Shown here: piece by piece, positions 961-21,535 of the stretch
Layout of the letters: the number at the start of each line of letters is the position of its first letter
How positions within the stretch are numbered: position 1 is the stretch's first letter
Assembly (NCBI GenBank): GCA_964648855.1
Contig: CAZYLT010000012.1
Location: 64,337 to 96,336 of the forward strand
From: an uncultured archaeon
GTDB taxonomy: Archaea; Asgardarchaeota; Thorarchaeia; Thorarchaeales; Thorarchaeaceae
Length of the DNA stretch: 32,000 bases
Reading direction: 5' to 3'
Made by a program: the position numbers and the translations under genes
Notes under the pieces: generated by a model
What the model was told of the DNA's origin: nothing
The model's database searches: none
Seen by the model: only the letters and a program-made list of their open reading frames with translations

Positions 961-2811
961 TTACACTGCAAATTCGGAAATACGTAGGTCCTTTCTACTC
1001 ATAAAAATCAAGTAGACGGGAATGGCGGCAAGAACGATTACTCCCAGAAGTGCCAATAGTAGGAGCCCAGCTGTAAAAGGAAGATAGACGAGAGAGGGAA
1101 CGGAGGCCTCGGGAACCAAGAAGAATACACTGAATAGGACTGATACAAAGAGTGCAGGAATACCACTTTTCATTCCCATACTGAGTCCTTCAGCAATTAT
1201 TGTCTTTGCAATGAAACTTGGGGAGGCCCCCACTGATCGCATGACAACATAGTCCCTGAATCTGCTGAACACTGAAATCAGCATATAATACATCAATCCA
1301 AGAAAAGCGCTCACCAGTGCCATGATTGGAATAGGCTGCATCAGGCTCCAATACGACCCAATGATACCCTGATTGGCTTCGAGTATTTCTTGTTGTTCGT
1401 ATATCGAGAGTCCATATTCCTCAGCCAATAGACGGAGTTGAACTACTGTAGATTCCGTGTACCTGCTTAGTTGAACTAATACTAAGTTTACACCATTCAT
1501 ATCGAAAATATCCTGCATACGAGCAAGTGGTATTAGTGCCACTCTTCCACCGTTCAGAATTTCAAAAGCAATCCCATTTATCTCAAATGAGCTGCCTCTT
1601 ATTCCTACAGATTGTATCAACGGATCTTCAAATGAGTTGATTGCGATTTCACCACCAATCCAGGCAGATGTGGTTGTATTGACTTCAGTGCCCTCATAAT
1701 ACCAATCGGAGAGTGTGTTTTCCCAATCAATACCGACAACAAGGGCGTCAACTACTCTGTCTTCACCTATCCGTTCATATCTTTCTAGGGTTGGATTCCA
1801 TATTATAGCTGGATTCTCTGCAACCTCCGCAAACTGGACTAAGCGGCCTTCTATTCCATCTACAGCACTCATTTCGGATGCTTCCACTAAGAGCTCTTGG
1901 GGTATGAACTGCTGATTCCCTGTATAATTGAAGGGAGCACTAAGTTGATTCCCATCTAGCCGGTATGAATCATAGTACTGACTGAGGAGACCAGGATCAC
2001 CAATTGCCACAACGTTCTCACCCATAGACCTAGTAACATAGGAGTCCATTGTTGTTTCAACGATGCCTCCACCTATCAGCAATACGGATGCAAGTGAAAA
2101 GGACAAGAAGAGCGAGAGGATAGTTCGCCGGGTGCCTTGGATTCTTCTTCCGGTACCTTTTGTCGCGATTTTGAATGGGAGCCCAAAACTATCCATCAAA
2201 CCATACTTCTTCACTTTCATTCCCACATCAGGATTGAGAGCCCGGATAGGAGACTCGTGAACAGCATCATAGATTGGCTTTTGCGCTGCGAAATAGCCCA
2301 CAAATAGCAGAAGACCGGCTATCAGTAGAATCTGAACCCATGGGAAGACAAAGACAAATTCTAAACCGGGTACTGCAAAGGCTAACCAAATCAACCCCAA
2401 TAGGTATAGGAAACTCCCCAGAGCAACACCTAGAATGGTGCCAACACCTAAGATGATTACAGACTGCGCCATAAAATGGTCAAAAATGGTATCTATGAGA
2501 GTGCCAATGGATTTCATTAATCCAATATCCTTCCGACGACTCACAATTTCTAGGGAGATATTGCTAGAAACGACGGTCACACCGAGGGATATGATCAAGA
2601 TGAGAGCAGCCCAAATGAAAGTTTCAAAAAAGACTCCAAGGGCAGAGGCGAGCCCGATAGATGTGAGGGTTGATGTTACATCTAGCATGACATTTGAGAA
2701 TAGGAATAGGAATGTTGTTGCACCTACTACAGTCGCAATGGAAAGTAATACTACTGAGGTTCTGAAGGGGCGCCGCTTGAGGTCTTGTGAAGCATAGTCC
2801 TGTTCAGACAT
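961..2811 (-). CDS. FtsX/MacB-family ABC permease with two FtsX-type domains
   Basis: RRKDIGLMKSIG and RFRDYVVMRSVGAS motifs, multiple TM segments and a large extracytoplasmic domain. ATG 2811 overlaps the ATPase stop; the track start is 2829. Confidence 0.85.
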   Translation of the reverse strand: MSEQDYASQDLKRRPFRTSVVLLSIATVVGATTFLFLFSNVMLDVTSTLTSIGLASALGVFFETFIWAALILIISLGVTVVSSNISLEIVSRRKDIGLMKSIGTLIDTIFDHFMAQSVIILGVGTILGVALGSFLYLLGLIWLAFAVPGLEFVFVFPWVQILLIAGLLLFVGYFAAQKPIYDAVHESPIRALNPDVGMKVKKYGLMDSFGLPFKIATKGTGRRIQGTRRTILSLFLSFSLASVLLIGGGIVETTMDSYVTRSMGENVVAIGDPGLLSQYYDSYRLDGNQLSAPFNYTGNQQFIPQELLVEASEMSAVDGIEGRLVQFAEVAENPAIIWNPTLERYERIGEDRVVDALVVGIDWENTLSDWYYEGTEVNTTTSAWIGGEIAINSFEDPLIQSVGIRGSSFEINGIAFEILNGGRVALIPLARMQDIFDMNGVNLVLVQLSRYTESTVVQLRLLAEEYGLSIYEQQEILEANQGIIGSYWSLMQPIPIMALVSAFLGLMYYMLISVFSRFRDYVVMRSVGASPSFIAKTIIAEGLSMGMKSGIPALFVSVLFSVFFLVPEASVPSLVYLPFTAGLLLLALLGVIVLAAIPVYLIFMSRKDLRISEFAV

Positions 2812-3562
2812 TTTCACCAATAACCCCATTTTTCATTGTGAGTAGTCGAACTCGGTCTTGCTCAATGATATTGATATCGTGCGTCATGCACAGCACGGTC
2901 TTTCCAGACTCATTCAGCCAAAGCAGTACATCACGAATCATCTGTGCTGACTCAGCATCAAGATTGGCAGTGGGTTCATCAGCCAGAATGATAGGGGGAT
3001 CATTTGCCATAGCCCGCGCAATTGCCACTCTTTGTTGCTCGCCTGAACTTAACTGCCAAGGAAGATGGTCTGTTCTTTCACCAAGGCCAACTCTCCGCAG
3101 CAGTTTGTCCGCTTCTTCCTCTGCATCAAGCTCCATGTCATCAAACAGCTGCATGGGAAACATGACGTTTTCTAATGCAGTAAGGGTGGAAATCAGATTG
3201 TAGCTTTGAAAGATGAAGCCAGTATTTGTTAATCGGAAGAGAGCACGAAAGTGTTCATCATAGTCCCCGATTGGTACATCCATGACCAATACCCTGCCAG
3301 ATGTTGGATAATCAATCGCACCAATCAAATTTAGAAGTGTCGTTTTACCTGATCCAGATGGCCCTTCAACAACCACAAATTTGCCGGGGTTCACTTCGAG
3401 GTCGGTCTTCCTTACTGCAACGATTTCCCGGTTCCCCAAAGAATAGCTTCGAGTCACATCAACCAGCTTGATTGCATTCTTGACTTCTTCCGAGCCAAGA
3501 GATTCCATGAAGTCAAACTCGTCATCCATTGGTGCTAGGTCAACTGATGTGTCATCGTCCAA
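2804..3562 (-). CDS. ABC transporter ATP-binding protein, LolD/SalX type
   Basis: GPSGSGKTT Walker A, GFIFQSYNL, LSSGEQQRVAIARA signature, ILADEPTANLD Walker B, THD. Confidence 0.95.
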   Translation of the reverse strand: MDDDTSVDLAPMDDEFDFMESLGSEEVKNAIKLVDVTRSYSLGNREIVAVRKTDLEVNPGKFVVVEGPSGSGKTTLLNLIGAIDYPTSGRVLVMDVPIGDYDEHFRALFRLTNTGFIFQSYNLISTLTALENVMFPMQLFDDMELDAEEEADKLLRRVGLGERTDHLPWQLSSGEQQRVAIARAMANDPPIILADEPTANLDAESAQMIRDVLLWLNESGKTVLCMTHDINIIEQDRVRLLTMKNGVIGENV

Positions 3563-3689
3563 TTCTATTTCACCTATGTTTGCAGTGGGCTCAATTGAGG
3601 AAATTGACCAACGTGCTACTGTATTCCTTGTTATCAGACATAGGACTGCGTTATCGTTCTAAGATAAACATGGGGTTTAAGGAGTGAAG

Positions 3690-4442
3690 TCACACGAGTT
3701 CAAAGCTTGTAAGTGCCTGGTCAGCCCATTTGGTTAGGGCTAAGGGACGTTCACGGCCAAATACTCTGATAGTTCGAAGAACTCCTGATTCGACAAGACT
3801 GTTCGCATAATAGGATACCAGACTCTTATCGATGTCCAGGGTTCTACTCAAAACAGCCTGTGTGATGCGTCCTTCGGTTTTGACTTCAGAGAGTATTGAA
3901 CGAATTGTAGGATTTCTCGTCATGGAGGCAAGCATGAGAGTGTTTTCATCATCCGAATAATTTCGCATGAAGAAATGTCGTGAGTTGCCATTCCTGATAG
4001 ATATAACCTGACCATCAGCCTCCAAATTGTCTATATGATACTGAAGAGCACCCATAGCACAGTCTACTGACCGCTGTAGCTCTCTGAGATGGATTCCAGG
4101 ATTAGCCTCTATTTCGATAAGAATCCGGTCGCGAAGTGAAAGTTGTTCGTCTTCACTTCTTCGTTCCGAGGCGACTGTGCCGATTGCAAATGCGACAACA
4201 GTACTCACTGTGAGAGACCTAGTTAGAAAACTGGGAAAGAGAACGGATGTACCACTAGCCATAGGAATAGACAGCATCTGAACATCCAGTGAGCCAATAT
4301 CTGAATCATAGGAAAGAGGAATATCTTGAATAGCAGCGTCACCTACTACTGCATTAGAACTGATCAAAAAAATGCTGACTAGACCGGTCATCATTAAGGA
4401 TAGAGCTAATGCCATTAGTATTTTCTGACTGCGATCGCCCAT
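3690..4442 (-). CDS. Membrane-anchored or signal-bearing double winged-helix transcriptional regulator (COG3398-like)
   Basis: N-terminal hydrophobic segment(s), then NPGIHLRELQRSVDCAMGALQYHIDNL and ITQAVLSRTLDIDKSLVSYYANSL wHTH motifs. Confidence 0.75.
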   Translation of the reverse strand: MGDRSQKILMALALSLMMTGLVSIFLISSNAVVGDAAIQDIPLSYDSDIGSLDVQMLSIPMASGTSVLFPSFLTRSLTVSTVVAFAIGTVASERRSEDEQLSLRDRILIEIEANPGIHLRELQRSVDCAMGALQYHIDNLEADGQVISIRNGNSRHFFMRNYSDDENTLMLASMTRNPTIRSILSEVKTEGRITQAVLSRTLDIDKSLVSYYANSLVESGVLRTIRVFGRERPLALTKWADQALTSFELV

Positions 4443-4504: not shown

Positions 4505-5056
4505 CTATTCTCCTCTTGGCGGGTAACTCATCTTTATGTGAAATGAGCACAGCTCGTGTCCAGTTGCCATACATCTCTCTTCTACTACAGTAAGAGTTTC
4601 ATATTCTATTCTATTATAGTCGGTTAGATACTCTAGGACAGACTCAATAAAGCCGCGCAAAAAGTAGCAAGATGGATCTTCGCTTTCATATCCTGAGGCG
4701 TACGGATTATCACGAATCTCGATTATTGCTTCTTCATCCAACCAAAGCTTGTAAAGCTTGGCAATTTTGATGTCGCCGAACGGCACTATTAGAGTTTCCA
4801 GAGCCATTCTTATGAACTCAACAATACCCTTGAAATCTCCAGGAGGTTTTTGGTCCCCAATTTTGAAGTATTCTCGCTGTGCTTCAAGTCCTGCAAGACG
4901 TCCTGCAGAGTAATACAAGTCTCGCACTCTATCGGGAAACATAACTCCTATGCGATTTCCGATTTTGGTCCATGTCTTTCCAAAAAAGGCACGCATTAGC
5001 TCCTGCTCTTTTAGTCGACCTTTCCACCATTCAATGACTTCATCCTGATTAGACAT
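4505..5056 (-). CDS. V4R-domain protein
   Basis: LYYSAGRLAG, DNPYA, SCYFLRGFIESVL and EERCMATGHELCSF give the classical V4R C/E/C/C metal-site pattern. Confidence 0.85.
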   Translation of the reverse strand: MSNQDEVIEWWKGRLKEQELMRAFFGKTWTKIGNRIGVMFPDRVRDLYYSAGRLAGLEAQREYFKIGDQKPPGDFKGIVEFIRMALETLIVPFGDIKIAKLYKLWLDEEAIIEIRDNPYASGYESEDPSCYFLRGFIESVLEYLTDYNRIEYETLTVVEERCMATGHELCSFHIKMSYPPRGE

Positions 5057-5128
5057 CTTGGTCTCTCCAGTCTAGCTCTCAAAGGAGTGGTAGGTTAAGT
5101 GCTTTATGTTGATAAATTAAAATCCAAT

Positions 5129-5602
5129 CTATCCTAGCCGGACATTCCAAACGCAAACTTCTGCACCGGTAGCACGACTCATTTCTTGAAAGACCTTCAC
5201 GTCAACTCCCTTAAAGTCCAGAATAGATTCCAATATGCCACTAAAAATCTCGCAGTATCCAAATCCGCGCATTCCCTCGAGGTTCACTTCTTGGCACCAG
5301 ACGCACTCTTCGTCTGTCACACGGATTGATCCTCGTGCGGAGTCCATATCCAAGTCGTCAGGCTTCTTATCATATAGGACTTTGAAAACGGATTCAATGA
5401 GTTTGGATACGTCTTCTCGAGTGGTTATCGTGTCTTTGGTTTTATCAGCAATCTCGGTATTTAGGTATAGATTTGTACCCAACCCACGACCGATATCACG
5501 AAGCCTTTCATTTGCAGCCTCGATATTACTGGTCTCCTCCATCACACCATCTACTATCCAACCATATATACTAAGCAACAATGGATTCTCGATATCGCCC
5601 AT
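5129..5602 (-). CDS. TRAPP Bet3-like/V4R-fold protein (copy 2)
   Basis: NERLRDIGRGLGTNL, ECVWCQ, YCEIFSGILESIL and ATGAEVCVW; collinear with 8018..8524. Confidence 0.75.
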   Translation of the reverse strand: MGDIENPLLLSIYGWIVDGVMEETSNIEAANERLRDIGRGLGTNLYLNTEIADKTKDTITTREDVSKLIESVFKVLYDKKPDDLDMDSARGSIRVTDEECVWCQEVNLEGMRGFGYCEIFSGILESILDFKGVDVKVFQEMSRATGAEVCVWNVRLG

Positions 5603-5627
5603 TAGGATGAAACCTCACTTATGACTA

Positions 5628-6614
5628 CTATACAGTTTTGCCAATCATACTAACATTCTTTCGGTATTTAGCTAGCACATTGATGACCATCTGCTTCTGA
5701 ACCCCAGCAGCTTCTGCAACTTCTGCAGTAGTTCTAGTACCATCACAGAATTTTAGGATATCTTCGTCTGCGTCCATCGCCTTCGAAAGATCGCCCTCAA
5801 ATTTCGGACATTTTACGAATTGACCCATGGTGCCTGCCTTGGCGCCCTTGCCGTCTTCTGCTTCAATGGCTGGAACATCAACAATATTCCTCGATGCTGC
5901 CCATTTAATGCACTCTATAACTCGCTCTGTAGGTTGAAACATCGAGTCTGCAACTTGAGCAACACTCACGTTGCCATCAACCAGCATCAAGACATCAAAC
6001 CCGAAGTTCCGATATGTCTTTTTCATCTCGGATGATAATTCAGAGTCTAGTGACAAGGTAGTGGCATATGCAGCTCCCCGTTTAGGAATCGTGGTCGGGA
6101 TAACCTTGAAGTCATCAGGAGACCTTTCTTCAGGGGGAGCCTCCTCTGATTCTACTTCTGGTTCCGCTTCAGCAGTGACCAGTACTTCAGCAGCGGGTTC
6201 TTCTGCAGCTGTAGAGGCTGCTTGAATACCTATACTCTCTAGTACCTGTAGATTACCTTCAGCAGACTCCTCGAATTCATCCGGAGGAGGTGGAAGTTCT
6301 ATTCCCTCTAGCATTCTAAGTACATTCTTGGTCTTTGCTATAGCCAATCCAAGCTGCAGCTCAGGCACATACAGAACAGTCAGAATCCAGTGCTCATCTA
6401 CAGGGGATAATACAACGAGGCCTTTCTCGGTATCAATAGTCATGAGTCTTAAATCAGACTTGTATAGCGAGATGCTATCTTTGACTCTTGGAAAGAGCTC
6501 GTCGGGGAATGAAAAACTAACGAAGGGTCGACCTCCGCTTGTCATCAATGAGTATCCCAGCACTTGGTCATCAAATCGGAGTTTTGAGAGTGCTCTTTCT
6601 AAATCGGTGGACAT
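5628..6614 (-). CDS. Roadblock/LC7-like domain + acidic Pro-rich linker + two wHTH repeats (copy 2)
   Basis: LERALSKLRFDDQVLGYSLMTSGG...WILTVL...LGLAIAKTKNV roadblock pattern; VDGNVSVAQVAD and CDGTRTTAEVAE repeats; paralog of 8540..9466. Confidence 0.65.
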   Translation of the reverse strand: MSTDLERALSKLRFDDQVLGYSLMTSGGRPFVSFSFPDELFPRVKDSISLYKSDLRLMTIDTEKGLVVLSPVDEHWILTVLYVPELQLGLAIAKTKNVLRMLEGIELPPPPDEFEESAEGNLQVLESIGIQAASTAAEEPAAEVLVTAEAEPEVESEEAPPEERSPDDFKVIPTTIPKRGAAYATTLSLDSELSSEMKKTYRNFGFDVLMLVDGNVSVAQVADSMFQPTERVIECIKWAASRNIVDVPAIEAEDGKGAKAGTMGQFVKCPKFEGDLSKAMDADEDILKFCDGTRTTAEVAEAAGVQKQMVINVLAKYRKNVSMIGKTV

Positions 6615-6839
6615 GATTGTATTCCTCGAATCCTCTGGTTGTGGTCTAAAGCTGCGCTTCCGATTCTTCCTTCCCGAGTATAGTGAAAAGGGTTGCGGTA
6701 ATGAATCACAGGTCCATGACGAGCGATTGCATGATTATCGTGAGAATGAGGAAGAAGATACATTTCAGTGGTCGTAGTGGCGATGGCAACAACATTAAGA
6801 GGCATTCTCATAACTACCAGCTGGTAGAGGTCAGAGAAA

Positions 6840-7433
6840 ATGCGAAATTTTGCAGGAGGTTTTGTCGGGTCAATTTTGGCTATGGCATTGGCTTATTTCT
6901 TGATAGACAACACATCAATCGCCTATCCTGAGAATGTAGAGCTGGTAGGCTTCCTGCTCACAGGCTCAGTCATACTCTCGGGGTCTCTAGAGAGCATTAT
7001 TTCGCTCAATTCCATATTGGAACTCATAGTATTGTGGGGACTAGTCGGTCTAATAGTTGCACCGTTCGGGGTTAGCGAATGGAACTTGCTTAGAACCGCG
7101 GTTTGGATGGGCGGAATAATAGCAACGTTCGCTCTCTCATCCACATTATCAGTAAATCCCGGTTTTTGGGTCCAAAACGATCGAAACCTGCTCCTAGCCA
7201 TTCTCTATGCGAAAACAATCATTGCTTCTCTAATCTCAGTTCCATTCTCATTTTTGGTCTTCAATGCAAAGAAGCGGTGGCTGAGAAAAGGACCGGAACC
7301 GGTACCTGAAAAGATAGAAACAGTCTGTGAGTGCGGGGCAATCTACAAGTCAAATCCTCTTATTTGTGTAGAGTGTGGCCGACAGCTTCGAGGGCAGACA
7401 GAAGAAAAATCGGGTGAATTATCTGGGTCGTGA
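6840..7433 (+). CDS. Multi-pass membrane protein with C-terminal zinc ribbon
   Basis: 4-5 hydrophobic segments, then CECG-x7-ICVECG. Confidence 0.75.
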   Translation: MRNFAGGFVGSILAMALAYFLIDNTSIAYPENVELVGFLLTGSVILSGSLESIISLNSILELIVLWGLVGLIVAPFGVSEWNLLRTAVWMGGIIATFALSSTLSVNPGFWVQNDRNLLLAILYAKTIIASLISVPFSFLVFNAKKRWLRKGPEPVPEKIETVCECGAIYKSNPLICVECGRQLRGQTEEKSGELSGS

Positions 7434-7934
7434 GATTCCACCGCCCAAAAGGCCACCCACAACACTGGCAATTGCTGGATAAAGAGCACCCTCTAGCACA
7501 ACTTGCAATATCAGCATTGATTGACCGCCGATTATTGCGGCGTAGTCAGTGGTTTGCACCAAAAAAATCAACAGCCAACTCAGAAAAGCCCCAATAATCA
7601 CCGCAAATAGAGCAGCAAATATACCCTGAACAATGTCACGGGAAAGAAGACCAGCAATAAGGCCACCAGTCCCCCAAACCAAGAACGTTAGAACTTGGCT
7701 GCCTGTTGCTCCGTATCCAATGTACATCCCGATGTTTACACCACTCAGTGTTGTTGGATAAAGAACTGTGGAGATAATAACCAGTTTGAGTTCGAGGTCA
7801 CTTCTATCCAAGAAGTCGCTTATGATTGTGGGATCAATTACTTCTGGCGGAATAGCAATACCGATGGTTAAAATAACGAAAGTCAAAGCAAAAGCAACCA
7901 CCAATCCTGCCAGTGTGCCGATTCCTTGACCCAA
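7419..7934 (-). CDS. Gly-rich multi-pass membrane protein
   Basis: About 4-5 TM segments with GxxxG motifs (GTGGLIAG, VGGLLGGG); GGAGG upstream of the start. Confidence 0.8.
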   Translation of the reverse strand: MGQGIGTLAGLVVAFALTFVILTIGIAIPPEVIDPTIISDFLDRSDLELKLVIISTVLYPTTLSGVNIGMYIGYGATGSQVLTFLVWGTGGLIAGLLSRDIVQGIFAALFAVIIGAFLSWLLIFLVQTTDYAAIIGGQSMLILQVVLEGALYPAIASVVGGLLGGGISRPR

Positions 7935-8017
7935 TCTATGTCCTCCATATCAAACTGATATTACAATTCGAATGTAGTGTTTTAAGCATATTCAAGAGCG
8001 ATTTCTATCTGGATACT

Positions 8018-8524
8018 CTAATCCAATTTTCTTAGGGTCCATGTGCAAACATCGTCACCCAATGCTTTACAGGACTCCTGAAATGAGTCAGCATTAAAGC
8101 CGCGCAATTTCATGACTGCATCGAATACTCCACTGACTAGATTGCAGTATTGTAGCCCTGGCATATCAGTAATCTGAACACCTTCACATATTGGACAATT
8201 GGCATCTGTAAACTTGATAGTCCTCTCGTCATCACTGATCCAAACGCCCGTGAAGTCTTGTCCAGAATTAACTTTGTAAGCCAACTGAAGCGTGTTGGAG
8301 AATTCTGCAAAACTAGCCGCATGATCTTTGATTCTATCAGCGTAGTCCATCAAGAGAGTTTCACCCACCTTGAATCCAACATCCTTCATTTTCCTGTTTA
8401 TCTCGTCCACACTCTCACTTGTTGTCATCAGCATATTCTGCAGCTCTCGATAAGTAGCTTGAAATAGTGTTTTTGATACTTTGTCAATTTTGAGAGCCCA
8501 AGCGAGTTTTCCTTTGATACCCAT
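8018..8524 (-). CDS. TRAPPC3/Bet3-like protein (copy 1)
   Basis: KVSKTLFQATYREL, EINRKMKDVGFKVGETLLMDY and LQYCNLVSGV resemble the recalled Bet3 motifs (ELFTLTYGAL, VNKQLDKMGFNIGVRLIEDF, LIYSNLLCGV); also CPIC and ESC...VC cysteines. Confidence 0.8.
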   Translation of the reverse strand: MGIKGKLAWALKIDKVSKTLFQATYRELQNMLMTTSESVDEINRKMKDVGFKVGETLLMDYADRIKDHAASFAEFSNTLQLAYKVNSGQDFTGVWISDDERTIKFTDANCPICEGVQITDMPGLQYCNLVSGVFDAVMKLRGFNADSFQESCKALGDDVCTWTLRKLD

Positions 8525-8539
8525 AGTATTACCTTCATT

Positions 8540-9466
8540 TTATATTCTTGATTTACGCACGAACTTCACTGCTTTCCCTCTATATGGAACTACACTCTGT
8601 AGAGCCTGAAAATATGGAATATTCAACAACTGTGCAATTTCTTGTAAGGTGTGAGTGCCATCACATTTTTCGATAACATCACGATGTTCCTTCTTTATCT
8701 TGTTGATTTCTCCCTCAAAAATAGGAACTTCGACAAGTTCCTTCTTTTCTAAAGCTTGTTCCTCAGGACATTCGGCCGAAATAATCTTCCGTGAAACGCA
8801 CCAGCGAAGAACATCCATTACTTTTTCAACTTGCCGTGCCACGGCTTCAGCAATCTTGAAGGCGGTTCGACGTTCATCAACCATCATAAGAATATCAAGA
8901 GCTGTGTTTCCAAATTCGGCTGTGAGCTCTGTATTTACAGGGGTGTTTGTTGCCATTGATTGACTGTAGTTTTCGTCTCGGTGAATTATGCAGCCATGTC
9001 GCATTTCCACTTCATCAGGGGAAAATGATTGCCGCGGGGTTTCGACAACAGGCGATTCCTGTGCCGTGATTGCTTCTATTTGGACGACTTCCGTAACTTC
9101 TTCGTCTGAAACATCTGGATCCGGCACATATACTGAACTGGGAGGAGAAGGCAAATCAACTTCACCTAACAACTCCATTACGTTTCGTGTCTTCTGCAAT
9201 GCCATCCCTAAGGACTCTTCAGCATCGAAAAGGACCCCCAGAACCCAATAGTTGTCAACCCGCGCTAGAACAACTGTTCCTGCACCGCTCATGATGTTCA
9301 TCAGTTTCAGGGATTCTGCATGAATTTCCAGAGTTTCCTTAATTGTAGGGAGAATTTCATCAGGTAGAGAGAAAGAGAGGAAGGGAGTTCCATCGTTGGT
9401 GAAAAGAGCATAGCCATTAACCGACTGATCAAATCGGAGTTTCGTTAATACTCGCTCTAGTTCCAT
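8540..9466 (-). CDS. Roadblock/LC7-like domain + acidic linker + two wHTH repeats (copy 1)
   Basis: Start moved to ATG 9466 (MELERVLTKLRFD) by paralogy with 5628..6614 and to remove the overlap with the kinase; GYALFTNDG, VDERRTAFKIAE, VPIF...CDGTHTLQEIA. Confidence 0.65.
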   Translation of the reverse strand: MELERVLTKLRFDQSVNGYALFTNDGTPFLSFSLPDEILPTIKETLEIHAESLKLMNIMSGAGTVVLARVDNYWVLGVLFDAEESLGMALQKTRNVMELLGEVDLPSPPSSVYVPDPDVSDEEVTEVVQIEAITAQESPVVETPRQSFSPDEVEMRHGCIIHRDENYSQSMATNTPVNTELTAEFGNTALDILMMVDERRTAFKIAEAVARQVEKVMDVLRWCVSRKIISAECPEEQALEKKELVEVPIFEGEINKIKKEHRDVIEKCDGTHTLQEIAQLLNIPYFQALQSVVPYRGKAVKFVRKSRI

Positions 9467-9503: not shown

Positions 9504-10610
9504 TTATCCTCTGGCAGATTTAAGTAACTTTGTGCCATGAATTGAAACGTCAGGATTGGACTCTAAAAACGAAATTAGCTGGTTCAGTGATGGATGTGTT
9601 GCATCTTTAGACGAAACATAAAGTGCTGCAACAGCATTTGCTAGAGCTAATCGGTCAAGAGAATCGAGATTATTCAAGAGTCCAAATATATTGCCAGCAT
9701 TCCAAGCATCACCAGCCCCACATAATGTTCTCTCGGTTACATTGAAACTGGGGAAGGAAACAGTCTCTGAGTTTTGAATAGAAGATGAAAAGAAAGGCGT
9801 GTGAAGATCGATTTGACAGTTTATATGCTTCGATAATATTTGAGCGGATTCGAGCCATCTTTCAGGCGTTTCTACAATCTCTTGCCAATCACTGGAGGCC
9901 CCGCTCAGAGCACGAAAAAGCCATGCAGCCTCATTTTCATTTACGCCCAATACATCAATCAAGTTTGAGGGAAATATTCTGTCAACGAGGTCCGCAACCA
10001 TATCAGGGCGATTTGAGGGATCACCAATATCGAGATATGTAATCGCATCGCTTTCAGATCGAACAAATTCAAACAGATTCTCTGTTAATTCCATTGCCGC
10101 AAGGTTGTGATTTAGATTAACCAGAACCACCATCTTTGATTCTTTGATTGATTCTAAGTCGCTTTCAGTCAAATCTTCAAACCTGAATTGCTTTGCAGAG
10201 CCACTGTCACTCATCATAACATTGGCCCTTCGTCCTTCATAGTTGCCCTCCAATGAAACTGTGGCTGACAAAGAACCGTCTGTATGAATGTGGGATAAGT
10301 CCATAGAGGATTCAACAAGGCTTTCGAGTAGGCGATACCCATATGCATCAGTTGTGATTATTGGAACAGCTGGAACAGCTAATCTAAGAAGGGCTGATGA
10401 TGTGTTAATGGCATTACCACCCTTCCGGACGAATTGTGTATTACCAAGAATGTTGCCACCGCCCTGTTTAGCTATTCTCCGGATACTGTCAAGGAGATCC
10501 TCCAAATCTTCCACAATCACAAAGTGGTCTAGAAAGAAGTCAGGCAAAACGGTGACTTGTGGACACTCTGTTTCCTTTTTCAGAATTGATATGAGATTTG
10601 TATATACCAC
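9504..10610 (-). CDS. PfkB/ribokinase-family carbohydrate kinase
   Basis: GGNAINTS, NENEA and CGAGDAWNAG PfkB signatures. Confidence 0.85.
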   Translation of the reverse strand: MVYTNLISILKKETECPQVTVLPDFFLDHFVIVEDLEDLLDSIRRIAKQGGGNILGNTQFVRKGGNAINTSSALLRLAVPAVPIITTDAYGYRLLESLVESSMDLSHIHTDGSLSATVSLEGNYEGRRANVMMSDSGSAKQFRFEDLTESDLESIKESKMVVLVNLNHNLAAMELTENLFEFVRSESDAITYLDIGDPSNRPDMVADLVDRIFPSNLIDVLGVNENEAAWLFRALSGASSDWQEIVETPERWLESAQILSKHINCQIDLHTPFFSSSIQNSETVSFPSFNVTERTLCGAGDAWNAGNIFGLLNNLDSLDRLALANAVAALYVSSKDATHPSLNQLISFLESNPDVSIHGTKLLKSARG

Positions 10611-10647: not shown

Positions 10648-11091
10648 TTAGACCTTCTTAAGAGCTGCTTTCACCATTGAGGTGATTTTGTCCTCATCAA
10701 TTCCAGTCTTGTTAGTTGTCTTCTCAATATCGCAATAAGCCAAGTCAGAGATGGTCAGGATTCCTGCACCAGCAAGTGCTTCAGCATTTGCTTTGCTTAC
10801 GCCACGAATTGATGACAGCTCCTCAATTGCTGTGGCAACATTGGTTGCAGGCTCTTCAAGGGACATCGCCTCGATAATGTCATCAATCTCTGCAACATAG
10901 TTCTTCAGAGCTTCAACGTTCTCTTCATGGAGCGTTCTCCGTCTGAGGTCAACAATGAGCCCCATATCTCTGGTCTCAGGGATAGTGAGATCAGCTGCTT
11001 CAATCTCCTTCTGACTGAATCCACGTCCAATACGCGGCCGTTTGTCTTTGGGTGCTCGTACAACAGGTTCAGGTGTTATGTCGAAGCTCAT
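10648..11091 (-). CDS. rpl13e: Ribosomal protein L13e with C-terminal helix-hairpin-helix extension
   Basis: RIGRGFSQKEIEAA...GLIVDLRRRTLHEENVEAL is the L13e core; LSSIRGVSKANAEALAGAGI is HhH-like. Start placed at ATG 11091. Confidence 0.9.
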   Translation of the reverse strand: MSFDITPEPVVRAPKDKRPRIGRGFSQKEIEAADLTIPETRDMGLIVDLRRRTLHEENVEALKNYVAEIDDIIEAMSLEEPATNVATAIEELSSIRGVSKANAEALAGAGILTISDLAYCDIEKTTNKTGIDEDKITSMVKAALKKV

Positions 11092-11394
11092 TTTTTCGTT
11101 GGCTCCTATCCAGAACCATCGACTCGACAAAGCGCTTATTAGGCTTTCGAGATGGCACAAATTCAACTAATCGCTATATCGACCTATGCCGCAAAATCCA
11201 TGGTGCAGCAATCTCCACCAATGCTGCTAGAATGATAGAAAGCAAGAGAGGAGGAACTGAGCAATATTAACAAACTGAAGTGCAGGATAATCCAACTCAA
11301 TCTAGTGTATGAATCATAAATACATACCCTCCATGGTGATTTTACGTATATCCTTATTAATTGAGTAATGAAAGCAAAAAGCACTACGTGGCTT

Positions 11395-19681: not shown

Positions 19682-21535
19682 ATGGTGATAACGGTGGCTT
19701 CCGACAAGGAAAAACTTGCAAAAGCAATGGAGGCGCTCAAGAAGGGAAAGAATGATGTTGCTCAGATTCTCCTATCACAAATCGCAGATAGTTTTGCATT
19801 ACAAGGGTTGCATTCCAAAGCTGCAAATCTGTATGAGAAAGTTGCCATCCTAGGGTATCAACTCGACAAGACAGAAGTTGCTCTCAGAGCGATTGAGAAT
19901 GCTACTCTTATGTATGTGCGATTGTCTGACGAAGGGGTATACAAGGACATTGTGCGCCTAAATGAGAGGGGCTCCAAAATAGCAGAGAAAGCAGAAATGT
20001 ATGAAAGAGCAGCAGATGGTTACTTCAGAGCCTTAGATTTTGCAGCATCGGAACAAGAAAGAGATCGCCTAACCTGCAAGGCCGCGGACGCACTTGAGAA
20101 TCTTGCAGATATATTCGAAGAGAGAAAGGAGTTTGAGGAAGCTGTTAACACACTCAAAAAAGTTGGACGTCTTTACTATTCTGCAGGAGACCGCGAATTA
20201 GGATTAAGAATCCATGAAAGAGCGATAAGAGTTGCAATCCGTTGGGCAGACCAAGCAAAAGATTCGAAGAACTATTTGGCAGCAGGAAATGCTTTGGCTG
20301 AGGCAGCACAGATCATTCAGAATCAGGGAGATAATGTTGAGGCAGCACGTTTAATGATGGAGGCGGGAGAATATTATGAGAAGGGCGAATTGCATGAGAA
20401 AGCAGGGAATATCTATGATGCGGCACAGGAAGCTTACGATTTTGAGCGATTGACCAGTGCTACAAAGCAGGCTATGGCCCAAGCGGCAGAAGCGTATATG
20501 AAGATGGAAGGAAAACCGCAAGTTCTCGCTCCGCTTCTGGTAAAGGCTGGAGATATGTTCTCTGAACTTGGTCGTGTTATGAAAGCAAAATGGGCATACA
20601 AGCGAGCCAGTGAGCTCTTTGCTGAATTGGCTAAGAATGCAGCTGAAGAGGGAGATATCGATTCTGAAAAAACGAATCTTAGATATCGGGCGATGGGTCT
20701 AAGAAAATGGGGTAGAGAGAGAGAAGCTGATGAAATCTATACAGAAGTTGCCCAGTACTATCTCAACCAAGCAAAAAGAGAAGAAGAAAGAGGCGATGTC
20801 GAGAGGCAAGGCCTTTCGCTGGAGGAAGCATCAAAGGTTCTCTATGAGTACGGGGATGAAGAGAAAGCTCAAAGCAGCCTGAAACAAGCAATGGAGATAT
20901 ACCGCAACTTGGCTCAAACTGCCACTGATTCAGAGGAACCAGAGGATGCTTCGAAATTCTTTGGGAGGGCCGCGGAATGCGCTGGACGCCTTGGAGATAA
21001 GGAAAGAGAGAAGGAGTTTCATATCCTTGCGAGCAAACGAGCTGAAGATGCTGCGAAATACTTTGCAGATGTGGGTTTGAAGCAATTGTCAACAATTTGG
21101 AAGAGAACTGCAGCAGAAGAAGCCCTGAATACTCACAATCCAGATATGGTTGACAGAGCGATTGAGCTTCTGAAGCAATCGGTAGAGGGATTTCAGGATA
21201 CAGGAGAACTCAAAGAAGCCTTTGAGGACTTGTACACAATTTTCTTCACGGTGTATATGCAAAAGCCCCAGGAGAGATCGAAGCTGGATGGCATTGTAGA
21301 ACAAATGAATGACATTGCAATAGATGAACGCGACCTCTACTACTCCTCCATGGTGAATGTCATTCGGGCAGTTAATAAATCCGATAAAATTGGTGCACTA
21401 TTAGCATTTCAAGAACAGGAAGACGAGCTCATTGGGAAAAGAGAGTCATTGAGGTCGCTTATTGAATCCGTCGAACCACCAGAAGAATCCGAGGATGAGG
21501 CTCCCAGAGACTCGACTCACTGGCTTTACAAGTAG
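19682..21535 (+). CDS. Alpha-solenoid TPR/SNAP-like repeat protein
   Basis: All-helical, with recurring KAANLYEK, RAADGYFRA, AAGNALAEAA, KAGNIYDAA, KAGDMF and FGRAAEC units. Confidence 0.7.
   Translation: MVITVASDKEKLAKAMEALKKGKNDVAQILLSQIADSFALQGLHSKAANLYEKVAILGYQLDKTEVALRAIENATLMYVRLSDEGVYKDIVRLNERGSKIAEKAEMYERAADGYFRALDFAASEQERDRLTCKAADALENLADIFEERKEFEEAVNTLKKVGRLYYSAGDRELGLRIHERAIRVAIRWADQAKDSKNYLAAGNALAEAAQIIQNQGDNVEAARLMMEAGEYYEKGELHEKAGNIYDAAQEAYDFERLTSATKQAMAQAAEAYMKMEGKPQVLAPLLVKAGDMFSELGRVMKAKWAYKRASELFAELAKNAAEEGDIDSEKTNLRYRAMGLRKWGREREADEIYTEVAQYYLNQAKREEERGDVERQGLSLEEASKVLYEYGDEEKAQSSLKQAMEIYRNLAQTATDSEEPEDASKFFGRAAECAGRLGDKEREKEFHILASKRAEDAAKYFADVGLKQLSTIWKRTAAEEALNTHNPDMVDRAIELLKQSVEGFQDTGELKEAFEDLYTIFFTVYMQKPQERSKLDGIVEQMNDIAIDERDLYYSSMVNVIRAVNKSDKIGALLAFQEQEDELIGKRESLRSLIESVEPPEESEDEAPRDSTHWLYK

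Follow-up and report, generated by a model that had tools for sequence, protein, structure and literature searches.

Two sister operons in Thorarchaeia pair roadblock-winged-helix genes with TRAPPC3/Bet3-like genes: candidate parts of a GTPase-regulating platform

Two ancient sister operons, each with a gene for a roadblock protein carrying winged helices (A1 or A2) followed by a gene for a TRAPPC3/Bet3-family zinc protein (B1 or B2), are found in a 32,000-nucleotide stretch of DNA (the window) from an uncultured thorarchaeon; A2>B2 is followed by a V4R gene (D). The A proteins are predicted to be platform proteins in which a roadblock domain is joined by a flexible acidic linker to two winged helices of the NPRL2 type. 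With a probability estimated at about 45%, A1/A2 and B1/B2 form a soluble hetero-oligomer that serves as a GAP or GEF platform for a small Ras-superfamily GTPase. A literature search found no published description of the A-B pairing.

Gene order, spacing and linkage

The window carries all seven open reading frames where a preliminary description had placed them. A1 (8540..9466), B1 (8018..8524), A2 (5628..6614), B2 (5129..5602) and D (4505..5056) are on the reverse strand, as is C1 (7419..7934), a small protein with about four transmembrane (TM) segments by hydropathy. C2 (6840..7433), with about four TM segments and a zinc ribbon at its C-terminus, is on the forward strand, and its 3' end overlaps convergent C1 by 15 nt. 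The longest frame for A1, orthologues of which occur in 19 loci, begins at 9538; the Met at 9466 is the better start, since A2 and all orthologues align from it. The region had been read as two paralogous three-gene sets, which holds for two of the three genes: A1 and A2 (31% identity over 327 aa, E 2e-58) and B1 and B2 (24% over 152 aa, E 6e-23) are true paralogs, whereas C1 and C2 show no similarity in pairwise comparison (best E 0.25) and are not. The gaps of 15 nt (A1 to B1) and 25 nt (A2 to B2) are as first described. In 19-20 related genomes the median A-to-B gaps are 15 and 28 nt and the gap from B to the next gene is 69-89 nt; the A-to-B range, 0-36 nt, is far tighter than that of the other junctions.

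The A family, and with it the A-B linkage, is conserved in 85 of the 87 Thorarchaeia genomes searched, 86 of which were supplied by one family, and both paralogs are kept in that family. A 12-gene block, including genes for a PfkB kinase, an L13e protein, a DUF72 protein and an ABC transporter, is collinear in 19 of its genomes. Within the family the gene order stays the same for over 40 kb, so synteny at this level is weakly informative. In a sister family of Thorarchaeia the A-B adjacency persists despite flanking genes that are all different, and D lies 3' of B2 in both families, including the sister-family locus L053. The linkage recurs, reordered as A>V>B in Freyarchaeum and as B>V>A in Borrarchaeum; in both, a roadblock-/longin-like winged-helix (wHTH) gene is next to a pair of TRAPP-like genes.

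A membrane-anchored double winged-helix regulator, with an HVO_0163-type N-terminal HTH and an HTH_24 domain (Pfam) and one TM segment, is encoded 62 nt 3' of D on the strand shared with D (3690..4442). It is collinear in the same 19 genomes and missing from the sister-family locus. A MacB-type ABC pair is located downstream on the same strand.

The window has no GTPase domain in frames of at least 90 aa, in agreement with the preliminary description, and in the family to which the window belongs the module neither contains nor adjoins a GTPase gene. GTPase adjacency is confined to the sister family, where the A-B-V4R set is divergent from an operon of a small GTPase and a TPR protein, and to Wukongarchaeota, where the gene for a protein whose C-terminal domain is TRAPP/V4R adjoins two Ras/Rab-like GTPase genes. 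The orthologue of the sister-family GTPase in the window's family lies 32-42 kb off in five of six genomes and 875 kb off in the other. The Freyarchaeum and Borrarchaeum loci have no GTPase gene. Elsewhere in the window's genome, GTPase genes beside roadblock genes (loci on contigs C2 and C4) have no A or B relatives near them. The small GTPases of this genome include a Rag-like pair (contig C17), the one in the GTPase-TPR operon (contig C12) and an Arf-like one (contig C2).

The roadblock-winged-helix proteins

In the AF2 model of A2 (pLDDT 85), residues 1-111 form a roadblock domain, 112-165 a disordered linker and 165-328 two winged helices. In comparisons with this predicted model, residues 1-111 matched LAMTOR2/p14 with Z 13.3 (rmsd 2.1 Å, 103 residues) and MglB with Z of about 12, which bears out the roadblock-wHTH identity first proposed; the fold is that of MglB, LAMTOR2/3 (Ragulator) and the Asgard roadblock proteins 7F8M and 9JUE (Z 12-13.3). 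Roadblock domains of the MglB and LAMTOR2/3 type dimerise and bind small GTPases. Such proteins are usually encoded beside a GTPase, as seen at the contig C2 locus of the same genome. Unlike these single-domain proteins, A adds the linker and two winged helices, and it scores only 13.7 bits on PF03259, below the cut-off of 23.

The best Foldseek/PDB matches of full-length A2 were NPRL2/Npr2 (E 1.5e-6). For the C-terminal half alone, 13 of the 13 top Foldseek matches were NPRL2/NPRL3 (E 1e-3), and an exhaustive VIA search of 48,161 chains ranked residues 162-236 of NPRL2 first (Z 9.9) and Npr2 second (Z 9.6). At Z about 10, the likeness to NPRL2 is of moderate strength; generic wHTH proteins gave Z 5-6.

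NPRL2 and NPRL3 (Npr2 and Npr3), paired subunits of GATOR1/SEACIT, the GAP for RagA/Gtr1, consist of a longin domain and tandem wHTH domains (PMC3747258). Like them, A has an N-terminal platform of the longin/roadblock superfamily followed by tandem winged helices, and occurs as two paralogs side by side, only one of which has an invariant Arg by the G-x-P loop. This is A2, where G-R-P (GRPF) in the β1-β2 loop, before strand β2, is invariant in 120 of 120 homologs; the same loop of A1 is G-x-P, with x variable and without Arg. The GP motif of GAP longins sits in the corresponding loop (PMC12290439). Unlike NPRL2/NPRL3, the N-terminal domain of A is modelled with the roadblock strand order (α-β-β-α-β-β-β-α) and not that of longin, and its linker is disordered and acidic. 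The Pfam search gave no NPR2 match in A, no IML1/DEPDC5 was found, and the A genes are coupled to Bet3-like genes, which are absent from GATOR1. A GAP role of A is putative.

Sub-threshold matches to HTH_47, Sigma70_r4 and TrmB-like families were obtained with the winged-helix region of A, and the winged-helix halves have median pI values of 6.9 and 5.8, which is neutral to acidic. The actinobacterial conservon also has a roadblock protein (CvnB) working with a winged helix (the DUF742 protein CvnC), together with a GTPase (CvnD) and a kinase (CvnA). DUF742/HTH_47 matches, all below the Pfam cut-off, were detected in the wHTH of distant A relatives and in the Freyarchaeum protein. In contrast to the conservon, roadblock and winged helix are fused in A, and the operon has neither GTPase nor sensor kinase.

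TRAPPC3/Bet3-like and V4R proteins

B2 and the crystallised Thor-TRAPPC3 (7YH3, E 7.6e-76; 7YH2, E 1.1e-74; Tran, Akil, Senju and Robinson 2024, PMC10933270) are orthologues, and B1 is a paralog of both. On PF04051, B2 scores 40 bits and B1 26.3 bits; both score higher on TRAPP than on V4R, and neither matched a bacterial V4R structure in profile searches. As a single sequence B1 matches 7YH3 (E 1.4e-22) and eukaryotic TRAPPC3 (E 1e-7), and its orthologue profile matches eukaryotic TRAPPC3/Bet3 directly (E 1.6e-10). Five Cys are invariant among B1 orthologues. Judged by sequence, B1, so far unstudied, is the more eukaryote-like paralog, a closer match than B2 to TRAPPC3/Bet3. Thor-TRAPPC3 is a Zn-binding homodimer that has cavities inside and a PoxR-like Cys4 Zn site, and its crystallographers favour ligand binding; a longin-TRAPPC3 fusion has been described in Heimdall (PMC10933270). 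The upstream roadblock-wHTH gene, the B1 paralog and the duplicated operon are not reported in that paper. Both B proteins retain the V4R-type Cys/Zn site, which eukaryotic Bet3 has lost.

D is a classical V4R protein, as first annotated (PF02830, 44 bits against a cut-off of 31), and its orthologue profile matches MJ1460 (2OSD, E 4.6e-3). It is a member of the V4R sensors (PoxR/XylR/DmpR; archaeal MJ1460), with which the B proteins share fold and Zn site. In the tree, however, the D clade is apart from the B1 and B2 clades (support 100/100). By domain scores, profile matches and tree together, the B proteins belong with TRAPP/Bet3 and not with generic V4R sensors, in agreement with their original naming as Bet3-like.

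Proposed function and its alternatives

In the proposed hetero-oligomer, A1 and A2 would pair via their roadblock domains, in the manner of NPRL2-NPRL3, LAMTOR2-LAMTOR3 and MglB dimers, and B1 and B2 would dimerise via N-terminal helices, a contact already seen in the homodimer of the B2 orthologue. The B proteins could dock on the winged helices or linker of A. The assembly would act on a GTPase encoded elsewhere, as GAP or GEF platform, with client and direction both presumptive, and a hydrophobic ligand in the Bet3/V4R cavities may gate it. The connection to a small GTPase and all protein contacts are ones that we infer from predicted folds, homologies, paralogy, tight spacing and cross-lineage linkage.

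A possible though rather doubtful alternative is a signalling or transcription module without a GTPase, in which B1, B2 and D take up a small hydrophobic ligand, in the way of PoxR/XylR-type V4R domains, and the signal passes to A1/A2 and the membrane-anchored wHTH regulator and on to transcription of neighbours, for example the downstream ABC exporter. The cavities and PoxR-like site of the B2 orthologue, with the ligand binding proposed by its authors (PMC10933270), fit this reading, as do the classical V4R nature of D, the two wHTH domains of A with their sub-threshold HTH matches, the regulator and MacB-type pair collinear on one strand in 19 genomes, and an operon that lacks a GTPase in three lineages. 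However, the pI of the A winged helices is unlike the basic profile common in DNA binders, and structurally they match the protein-binding wHTH of NPRL2 best, with DNA-binding wHTH proteins scoring far lower. Roadblock is a GTPase-platform fold in all characterised systems, and the loci of the sister family, Freyarchaeum and Borrarchaeum contain neither the regulator nor the ABC genes. It is very improbable that A and B share no function and are adjacent only because the region rearranges slowly. The collinear block, in which even the GTPase at 32-42 kb stays in place, would suit such an explanation, but A-B adjacency outlives duplication, survives the change of flanking genes in the sister family, recurs in other gene orders and is much closer in spacing than the other junctions.

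The preliminary description had proposed a membrane-anchored complex with a pair each of Bet3-like, roadblock-wHTH and TM subunits, as a candidate proto-TRAPP system of GTPase regulation. That such a six-subunit complex acts as a Rab GEF is improbable. C1 and C2 do lie between both A-B pairs in 19 family genomes, each of the 10 loci inspected in a 'Hodarchaeota'-labelled family has one A-like gene that converges on a TM1->TMZn pair, and the cytosolic zinc ribbon of C2 (CxCG..S.P..C..CG, its Cys, Ser, Pro and Gly invariant in the family alignment) could serve docking. But beyond their lack of paralogy, C1 (TM1 family; weakly homologous to the 'Hodarchaeota' TM1 gene, E 2e-4) and C2 (TMZn family) each have separate orthologues elsewhere among Asgard archaea. 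Members of the C2 family are present in 196 of 400 Asgard genomes; A and B are absent from most of these 196, and the usual context of the TM pair across the phylum is geranylgeranyl reductase (GGR)->TM1->TMZn. The sister-family pair lies beside Snf7 genes on a contig other than that of the A-B-V4R set, no TM1- or TMZn-family frame was found near the TRAPP-like genes of Freyarchaeum and Borrarchaeum, and B1 and C1 are separated by 66-136 nt, A1 and B1 by 0-27 nt. C1 and C2 are best regarded as neighbours of the module, candidate members at most. The label 'proto-TRAPP Rab GEF' is an analogy only, in which a longin partner of the TRAPPC1/2/4 type and a GEF activity are hypothetical, the closest structural match of A being NPRL2/NPRL3 of a GAP complex and not a TRAPP subunit, and the earlier interpretation as a whole is partly supported.

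The component parts were already known; by their conserved pairing, A and B become candidate partners, open to experimental testing, in a possible archaeal complex that regulates GTPases.

Two gene pairs and their Bet3-like products

Two pairs of genes lie close together in the Candidatus Thorarchaeota genome (3.1 Mb, 94.6% complete). In each, a gene for a protein with a roadblock domain, an acidic linker and two winged helices (A1, 8540-9466; A2, 5628-6614) is associated with one for a TRAPPC3/Bet3-like protein (B1, 8018-8524; B2, 5129-5602). All of the open reading frames named in a preliminary description of the sequence are found at their window coordinates. The longest frame of A1 begins at 9538; in alignments with A2 and the orthologues, the shared start is the Met at 9466. 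As proposed there, A1 and A2 are paralogs (31% identity over 327 residues, E 2e-58), and so are B1 and B2 (24% identity, E 6e-23). They are the sole A copies in the genome and its sole matches to Pfam TRAPP (PF04051), respectively. The same description viewed each pair, together with a membrane protein, as one of two paralogous three-gene sets. This has to be given up: the membrane proteins encoded between the pairs, C1 (7419-7934, minus strand) and C2 (6840-7433, plus strand), are unrelated (best E 0.25), so that the sets are two-gene pairs. The C1 and C2 genes are convergent, with 3' ends that overlap by 15 nt (7419-7433). Two of the compared genomes have in-frame stops in set 1, with TAA in B1 in G003 (L044:8192-8695) and TAG in both A1 and B1 in G016 (contig C41, 23543-24885). 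Sequencing error, decay of set 1 or read-through may account for them.

B2 scores 40 bits against PF04051 (cut-off 27) and, judged by sequence, is the orthologue of both crystallised Thor-TRAPPC3 proteins (7YH3, E 7.6e-76 over 154 residues; 7YH2, E 1.1e-74). In the account of Thor-TRAPPC3 given by Tran et al. (2024; PMC10933270), these are Zn-binding homodimers with internal cavities, structurally nearest to eukaryotic TRAPPC3; the zinc is held by four Cys in the crystal, ligand binding is proposed, and a longin-TRAPPC3 fusion is also reported. The passages of that paper that treat Thor-TRAPPC3 do not mention the genes adjoining it; here, the B genes adjoin a gene for a roadblock-domain protein. 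From its match to the solved homodimers, B2 has the Bet3 alpha/beta fold with dimerisation via the N-terminal helices, and by homology B1 would share both features.

In the source genome B1 scores 26.3 bits against PF04051 (cut-off 27), and the domain is present in most B1 orthologues. The single B1 sequence matches Thor-TRAPPC3 (E 1.4e-22) and also eukaryotic TRAPPC3/Bet3 directly, while a profile of 19 orthologues finds TRAPPC3/Bet3 at E 1.6e-10 to 2e-6 and no bacterial V4R protein. The B2 profile matches TRAPPC6, TRAPPC3 and TRAPPC5 at about 1e-3. The neighbouring gene D (4505-5056) encodes a V4R protein (44.3 bits against PF02830, cut-off 31), and the sole match of the profile of its orthologues is the archaeal V4R protein MJ1460. 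In a tree of B1, B2, D and Asgard TRAPP-like genes, D forms a clade apart from all the others (100/100); this tree is unrooted and contains no eukaryotic TRAPP sequences, and TRAPP/Bet3 membership of B1 and B2 rests on the profile scores. With TRAPP subunits as the profile matches and D in its own clade, the Bet3-like proteins belong with TRAPP/Bet3 and not with generic V4R sensors; a placement with such sensors was what the preliminary description had named as counting against it. The eukaryotic-type TRAPP core lacks the V4R zinc site, whereas both B1 and B2 retain invariant V4R-type zinc-site cysteines: C110, C113, C127, C152 and C160 are invariant in B1, as are C100, C103 and C150 in B2, where C117 is near-invariant.

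The roadblock-winged helix proteins A1 and A2

Pfam detects only weak winged-helix matches in the A proteins, apart from a match of A2 to Robl_LC7 (PF03259) that at 13.7 bits is under the cut-off of 23; A1 has no match to PF03259. Searching PDB sequences with the A profile gave nothing useful. An exhaustive profile search of 1.84 billion representatives gave three full-length clusters, with the other matches confined to the winged helices. A short A-like protein, P0137, was set aside; the genes around it (ETF and PHP) are unrelated.

In an AlphaFold2 model of A2 (alignment of 41 orthologues and paralogs, mean pLDDT 85), residues 1-111 form an alpha-beta-beta-alpha-beta-beta-beta-alpha domain, a disordered linker follows, and residues 165-328 make up two winged-helix units. 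The N-terminal domain as modelled is a roadblock fold, with Z scores of 13.3 to LAMTOR2/p14, 13.2 to MK-D1 Roadblock3 and about 12 to MglB (101-109 residues). For the whole model, the best Foldseek matches are full-length NPRL2/Npr2 of GATOR1/SEACIT (E 1.5e-6). When the C-terminal half is modelled separately (pLDDT 85), the top 13 Foldseek matches are all NPRL2/NPRL3 chains (best E 1.6e-3). An exhaustive VIA-align comparison of this half with 48,161 chains ranks human NPRL2 first (8fw5_B residues 162-236; Z 9.9, rmsd 2.3 Å over 75 residues) and yeast Npr2 second (8adl_S, Z 9.6); for ordinary winged helices that bind DNA, Z is 5-6. The predicted tandem winged helices of A2 are thus of the NPRL2 type.

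NPRL2 and NPRL3 consist of a longin domain and repeated winged helices (Levine et al. 2013, PMC3747258). They form a paralog heterodimer; A is present as two paralogs, kept across Thorarchaeia, that may pair with each other. An NPRL2-like family noted in 'most Thor MAGs' (Liu et al., bioRxiv 10.1101/2020.10.19.343400) is probably the A family. Membership of A in the NPRL2 family is nevertheless not established, for several reasons. Pfam NPR2 (PF06218) has no match in A1 or A2 at E up to 1, nor anywhere in the genome. The N-terminal domain of NPRL2/NPRL3 is a longin, whereas the predicted order of elements in A2 is that of a roadblock, a fold of the same structural superfamily, and single-domain roadblocks rank above NPRL2 as matches to it. 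DEPDC5/Iml1 (PF12257) is likewise without a match in this 94.6% complete genome.

All A2-type homologs (120/120) have T..G-R-P-F in the loop ahead of strand beta2, and A1 orthologues have G-x-P, with x variable, in the equivalent loop. GAP-active longins carry a GP motif at the same structural position, beside an arginine finger (PMC12290439). The G-R-P and G-x-P loops may be equivalent to this motif, and the Arg of A2 to the finger residue Arg78 of NPRL2. In contrast to roadblock/LC7 proteins such as MglB and LAMTOR, whose cognate small GTPase is usually encoded alongside, no GTPase gene lies beside A in the window; as the preliminary description had stated, none was detected among window ORFs of at least 90 aa. 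DUF742 winged-helix matches, of the conservon CvnB-CvnC type, occur below threshold in A relatives only, and the A-B operon contains no conservon-type GTPase or kinase.

Gene neighbourhoods in Thorarchaeia and other Asgard archaea

The A family is found in 85 of the 87 genomes of the class, usually as a pair of copies separated by about 3 kb. In 19 genomes, which represent 16 genera, a block of 12 genes is collinear, in the order ABC ATPase, membrane wHTH, D, B2, A2, C2 (inverted), C1, B1, A1, PfkB, L13e, DUF72. Median gaps from A to B are 15 and 28 nt, compared with 69-89 nt from B to the next gene. A GTPase gene 32-42 kb away also holds its position in 5/6 genomes, so synteny inside the family is weak evidence by itself. 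Following D on the same strand (961-4442) are a membrane-anchored double-wHTH regulator (HVO_0163-type) and a MacB-like ABC pair (ATPase and FtsX permease), and these genes are collinear in 19 family genomes. On the other side (10648-11166) is a gene for a 172-aa protein with an L13e-like domain fused to a helix-hairpin-helix domain. A homolog occurs within about 5 kb of an A-like gene in both the Thor family and a 'Hodarchaeota'-labelled family, which hints at very old synteny.

Outside the family the neighbourhoods change. In a sister Thor family (one genome), a single A>B>V4R set has wholly different neighbours and is divergent from an operon for a small GTPase and a TPR protein. Candidatus Freyarchaeum has a gene for a 252-aa protein followed by two TRAPP/V4R-like genes; the N-terminus of this protein is roadblock-like in its sequence pattern by eye, and hhalign matches its last winged helix to the A profile (probability 95.6%, E 1.3e-8), with the motif 'lelCDG..T..eIA' common to both. 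In Candidatus Borrarchaeum a TRAPP-like gene comes first, then a V4R-like gene, then a gene for a wHTH protein of 244 aa; the N-terminus of this protein appears longin-like by eye, and the protein matches A weakly (probability 47%, E 2e-4). In Wukongarchaeota, a protein that is at least 408 aa long and has a TRAPP/V4R domain at its C-terminus adjoins two Ras/Rab-like GTPase genes; in profile-profile comparisons neither its N-terminal part nor the 485-aa product of a gene that follows a TRAPP-like gene in family f28 matches the A profile. Otherwise, in a set of 268 Asgard genomes, PF04051 is scarcely found outside Thorarchaeia (0/106 in the largest family).

The membrane proteins have a distribution of their own. 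C2, a 4-TM protein, carries a zinc ribbon at its C-terminus (invariant CxCG..S.P..C..CG), and its family occurs in 196/400 Asgard genomes from many families. The usual context is a triad in at least five Asgard families, in which a geranylgeranyl reductase gene (PF22578) is followed by genes for a small TM protein (TM1, the family of C1) and the 4-TM zinc-ribbon protein (TMZn, the family of C2), e.g., at L065:3665-6075 and at L078, L079, L080, L083, L086 and L091. This pair may be tied to membrane-lipid saturation, not to the A-B module. In the 'Hodarchaeota'-labelled family, which has no TRAPP gene, the triad converges with a single A-like gene, whose product has a roadblock, a Pro-rich linker and one wHTH, and an L13e gene is close by as in the window; TM1 and TMZn are co-directional there, unlike the convergent C1 and C2. 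In the sister Thor family the TM1/TMZn pair is on a separate contig, beside two Snf7 (ESCRT-III) genes (L087:4171-6628, G025).

Candidate GTPases and the function of the A-B pairs

Several small GTPases are encoded elsewhere in the genome. About 33 kb from the module, on the same contig (C12, 34956-36594; L067:4956-6594), a 238-aa small GTPase precedes a TPR/SNAP-like protein in an operon. The GTPase is 75-81% identical across the family, and the orthologous operon is the one that divergently adjoins the A-B-V4R set in the sister Thor family (L053:6304-8100). Within the window, 19682-21535 encodes a protein of 617 aa that contains SNAP-like and TPR repeats. Two tandem Rag/Gtr1-like GTPase genes on contig C17 (35420-36538; open frames of 182 and 186 aa) are candidate clients of an NPRL2-like platform. 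A separate GTPase-roadblock system is present on contig C2 (168182-173695; L098:6182-11695), with genes for a Sec23/24-like protein, LAMTOR5-like and MP1-like roadblocks, an Arf-like GTPase, a zinc-ribbon protein, a third roadblock and UPP synthase. No relative of A, B or D was detected by HMMs (E up to 1) at the roadblock/GTPase loci on contigs C2 and C4.

The best supported reading, with a probability of roughly 0.45, is a soluble assembly of A1/A2 and B1/B2, with or without D. The roadblock domains of A1/A2 would dimerise into a platform for a small GTPase whose gene lies elsewhere, and ligands in the Bet3/V4R cavities may exert additional control. The folds, the asymmetry between the paralogs, adjacency to GTPase genes in two cases and the longin-TRAPPC3 fusion reported in the literature favour it; the lack of a GTPase in the operon in three lineages and the retained V4R-like features weaken it. 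Its main rival, a ligand-sensing winged-helix regulatory module that works without any GTPase, is less likely. Weighing against it, the winged-helix halves are near-neutral to acidic, and their structural matches are of the NPRL2 type and not the DNA-binding type.

The membrane-anchored proto-TRAPP hexamer of the preliminary description is quite improbable: judged by its contexts, the membrane pair has long adjoined A in two lineages but does not belong consistently to the A-B module. Mere synteny of A and B can be given very little credence. Their adjacency outlasts duplication, change of neighbours and reshuffled order, which is good evidence for joint action of proteins of the A and B types. 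A bolder form of the platform reading, itself unlikely, would have A1/A2 and B1/B2 in one hetero-oligomer that joins an NPRL2/NPRL3-type platform to TRAPP Bet3 subunits and acts as the switch of a Rag-, Arf- or Rab-like GTPase; the catalytic finger would be Arg29 of A2. If this were true, an assembly principle older than eukaryotes, and one that can still be seen in Thor-, Frey- and Borrarchaeia, would be common to the eukaryotic GATOR1-type GAPs and the TRAPP GEF core.

Thor-TRAPPC3, Asgard roadblocks and the NPRL2-like family are already known; a full-text literature search found no paper on the operonic pairing of A and B, the B1 paralog, or the duplication. Asgard genomes encode many eukaryote-like GTPases, roadblock/longin proteins and TRAPPC3-like proteins, and which of these cooperate is an open problem. 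Genome layout rarely reveals Asgard partners, according to Tran et al. (2024; PMC10933270). The A-B locus does: its conserved and duplicated operon points directly to candidate partners for the crystallised Thor-TRAPPC3, and the candidate partner has an NPRL2/NPRL3-like build. The question of TRAPP- or GATOR-like regulators in Asgard archaea thereby narrows to a few proteins and a handful of GTPases from the same genome.
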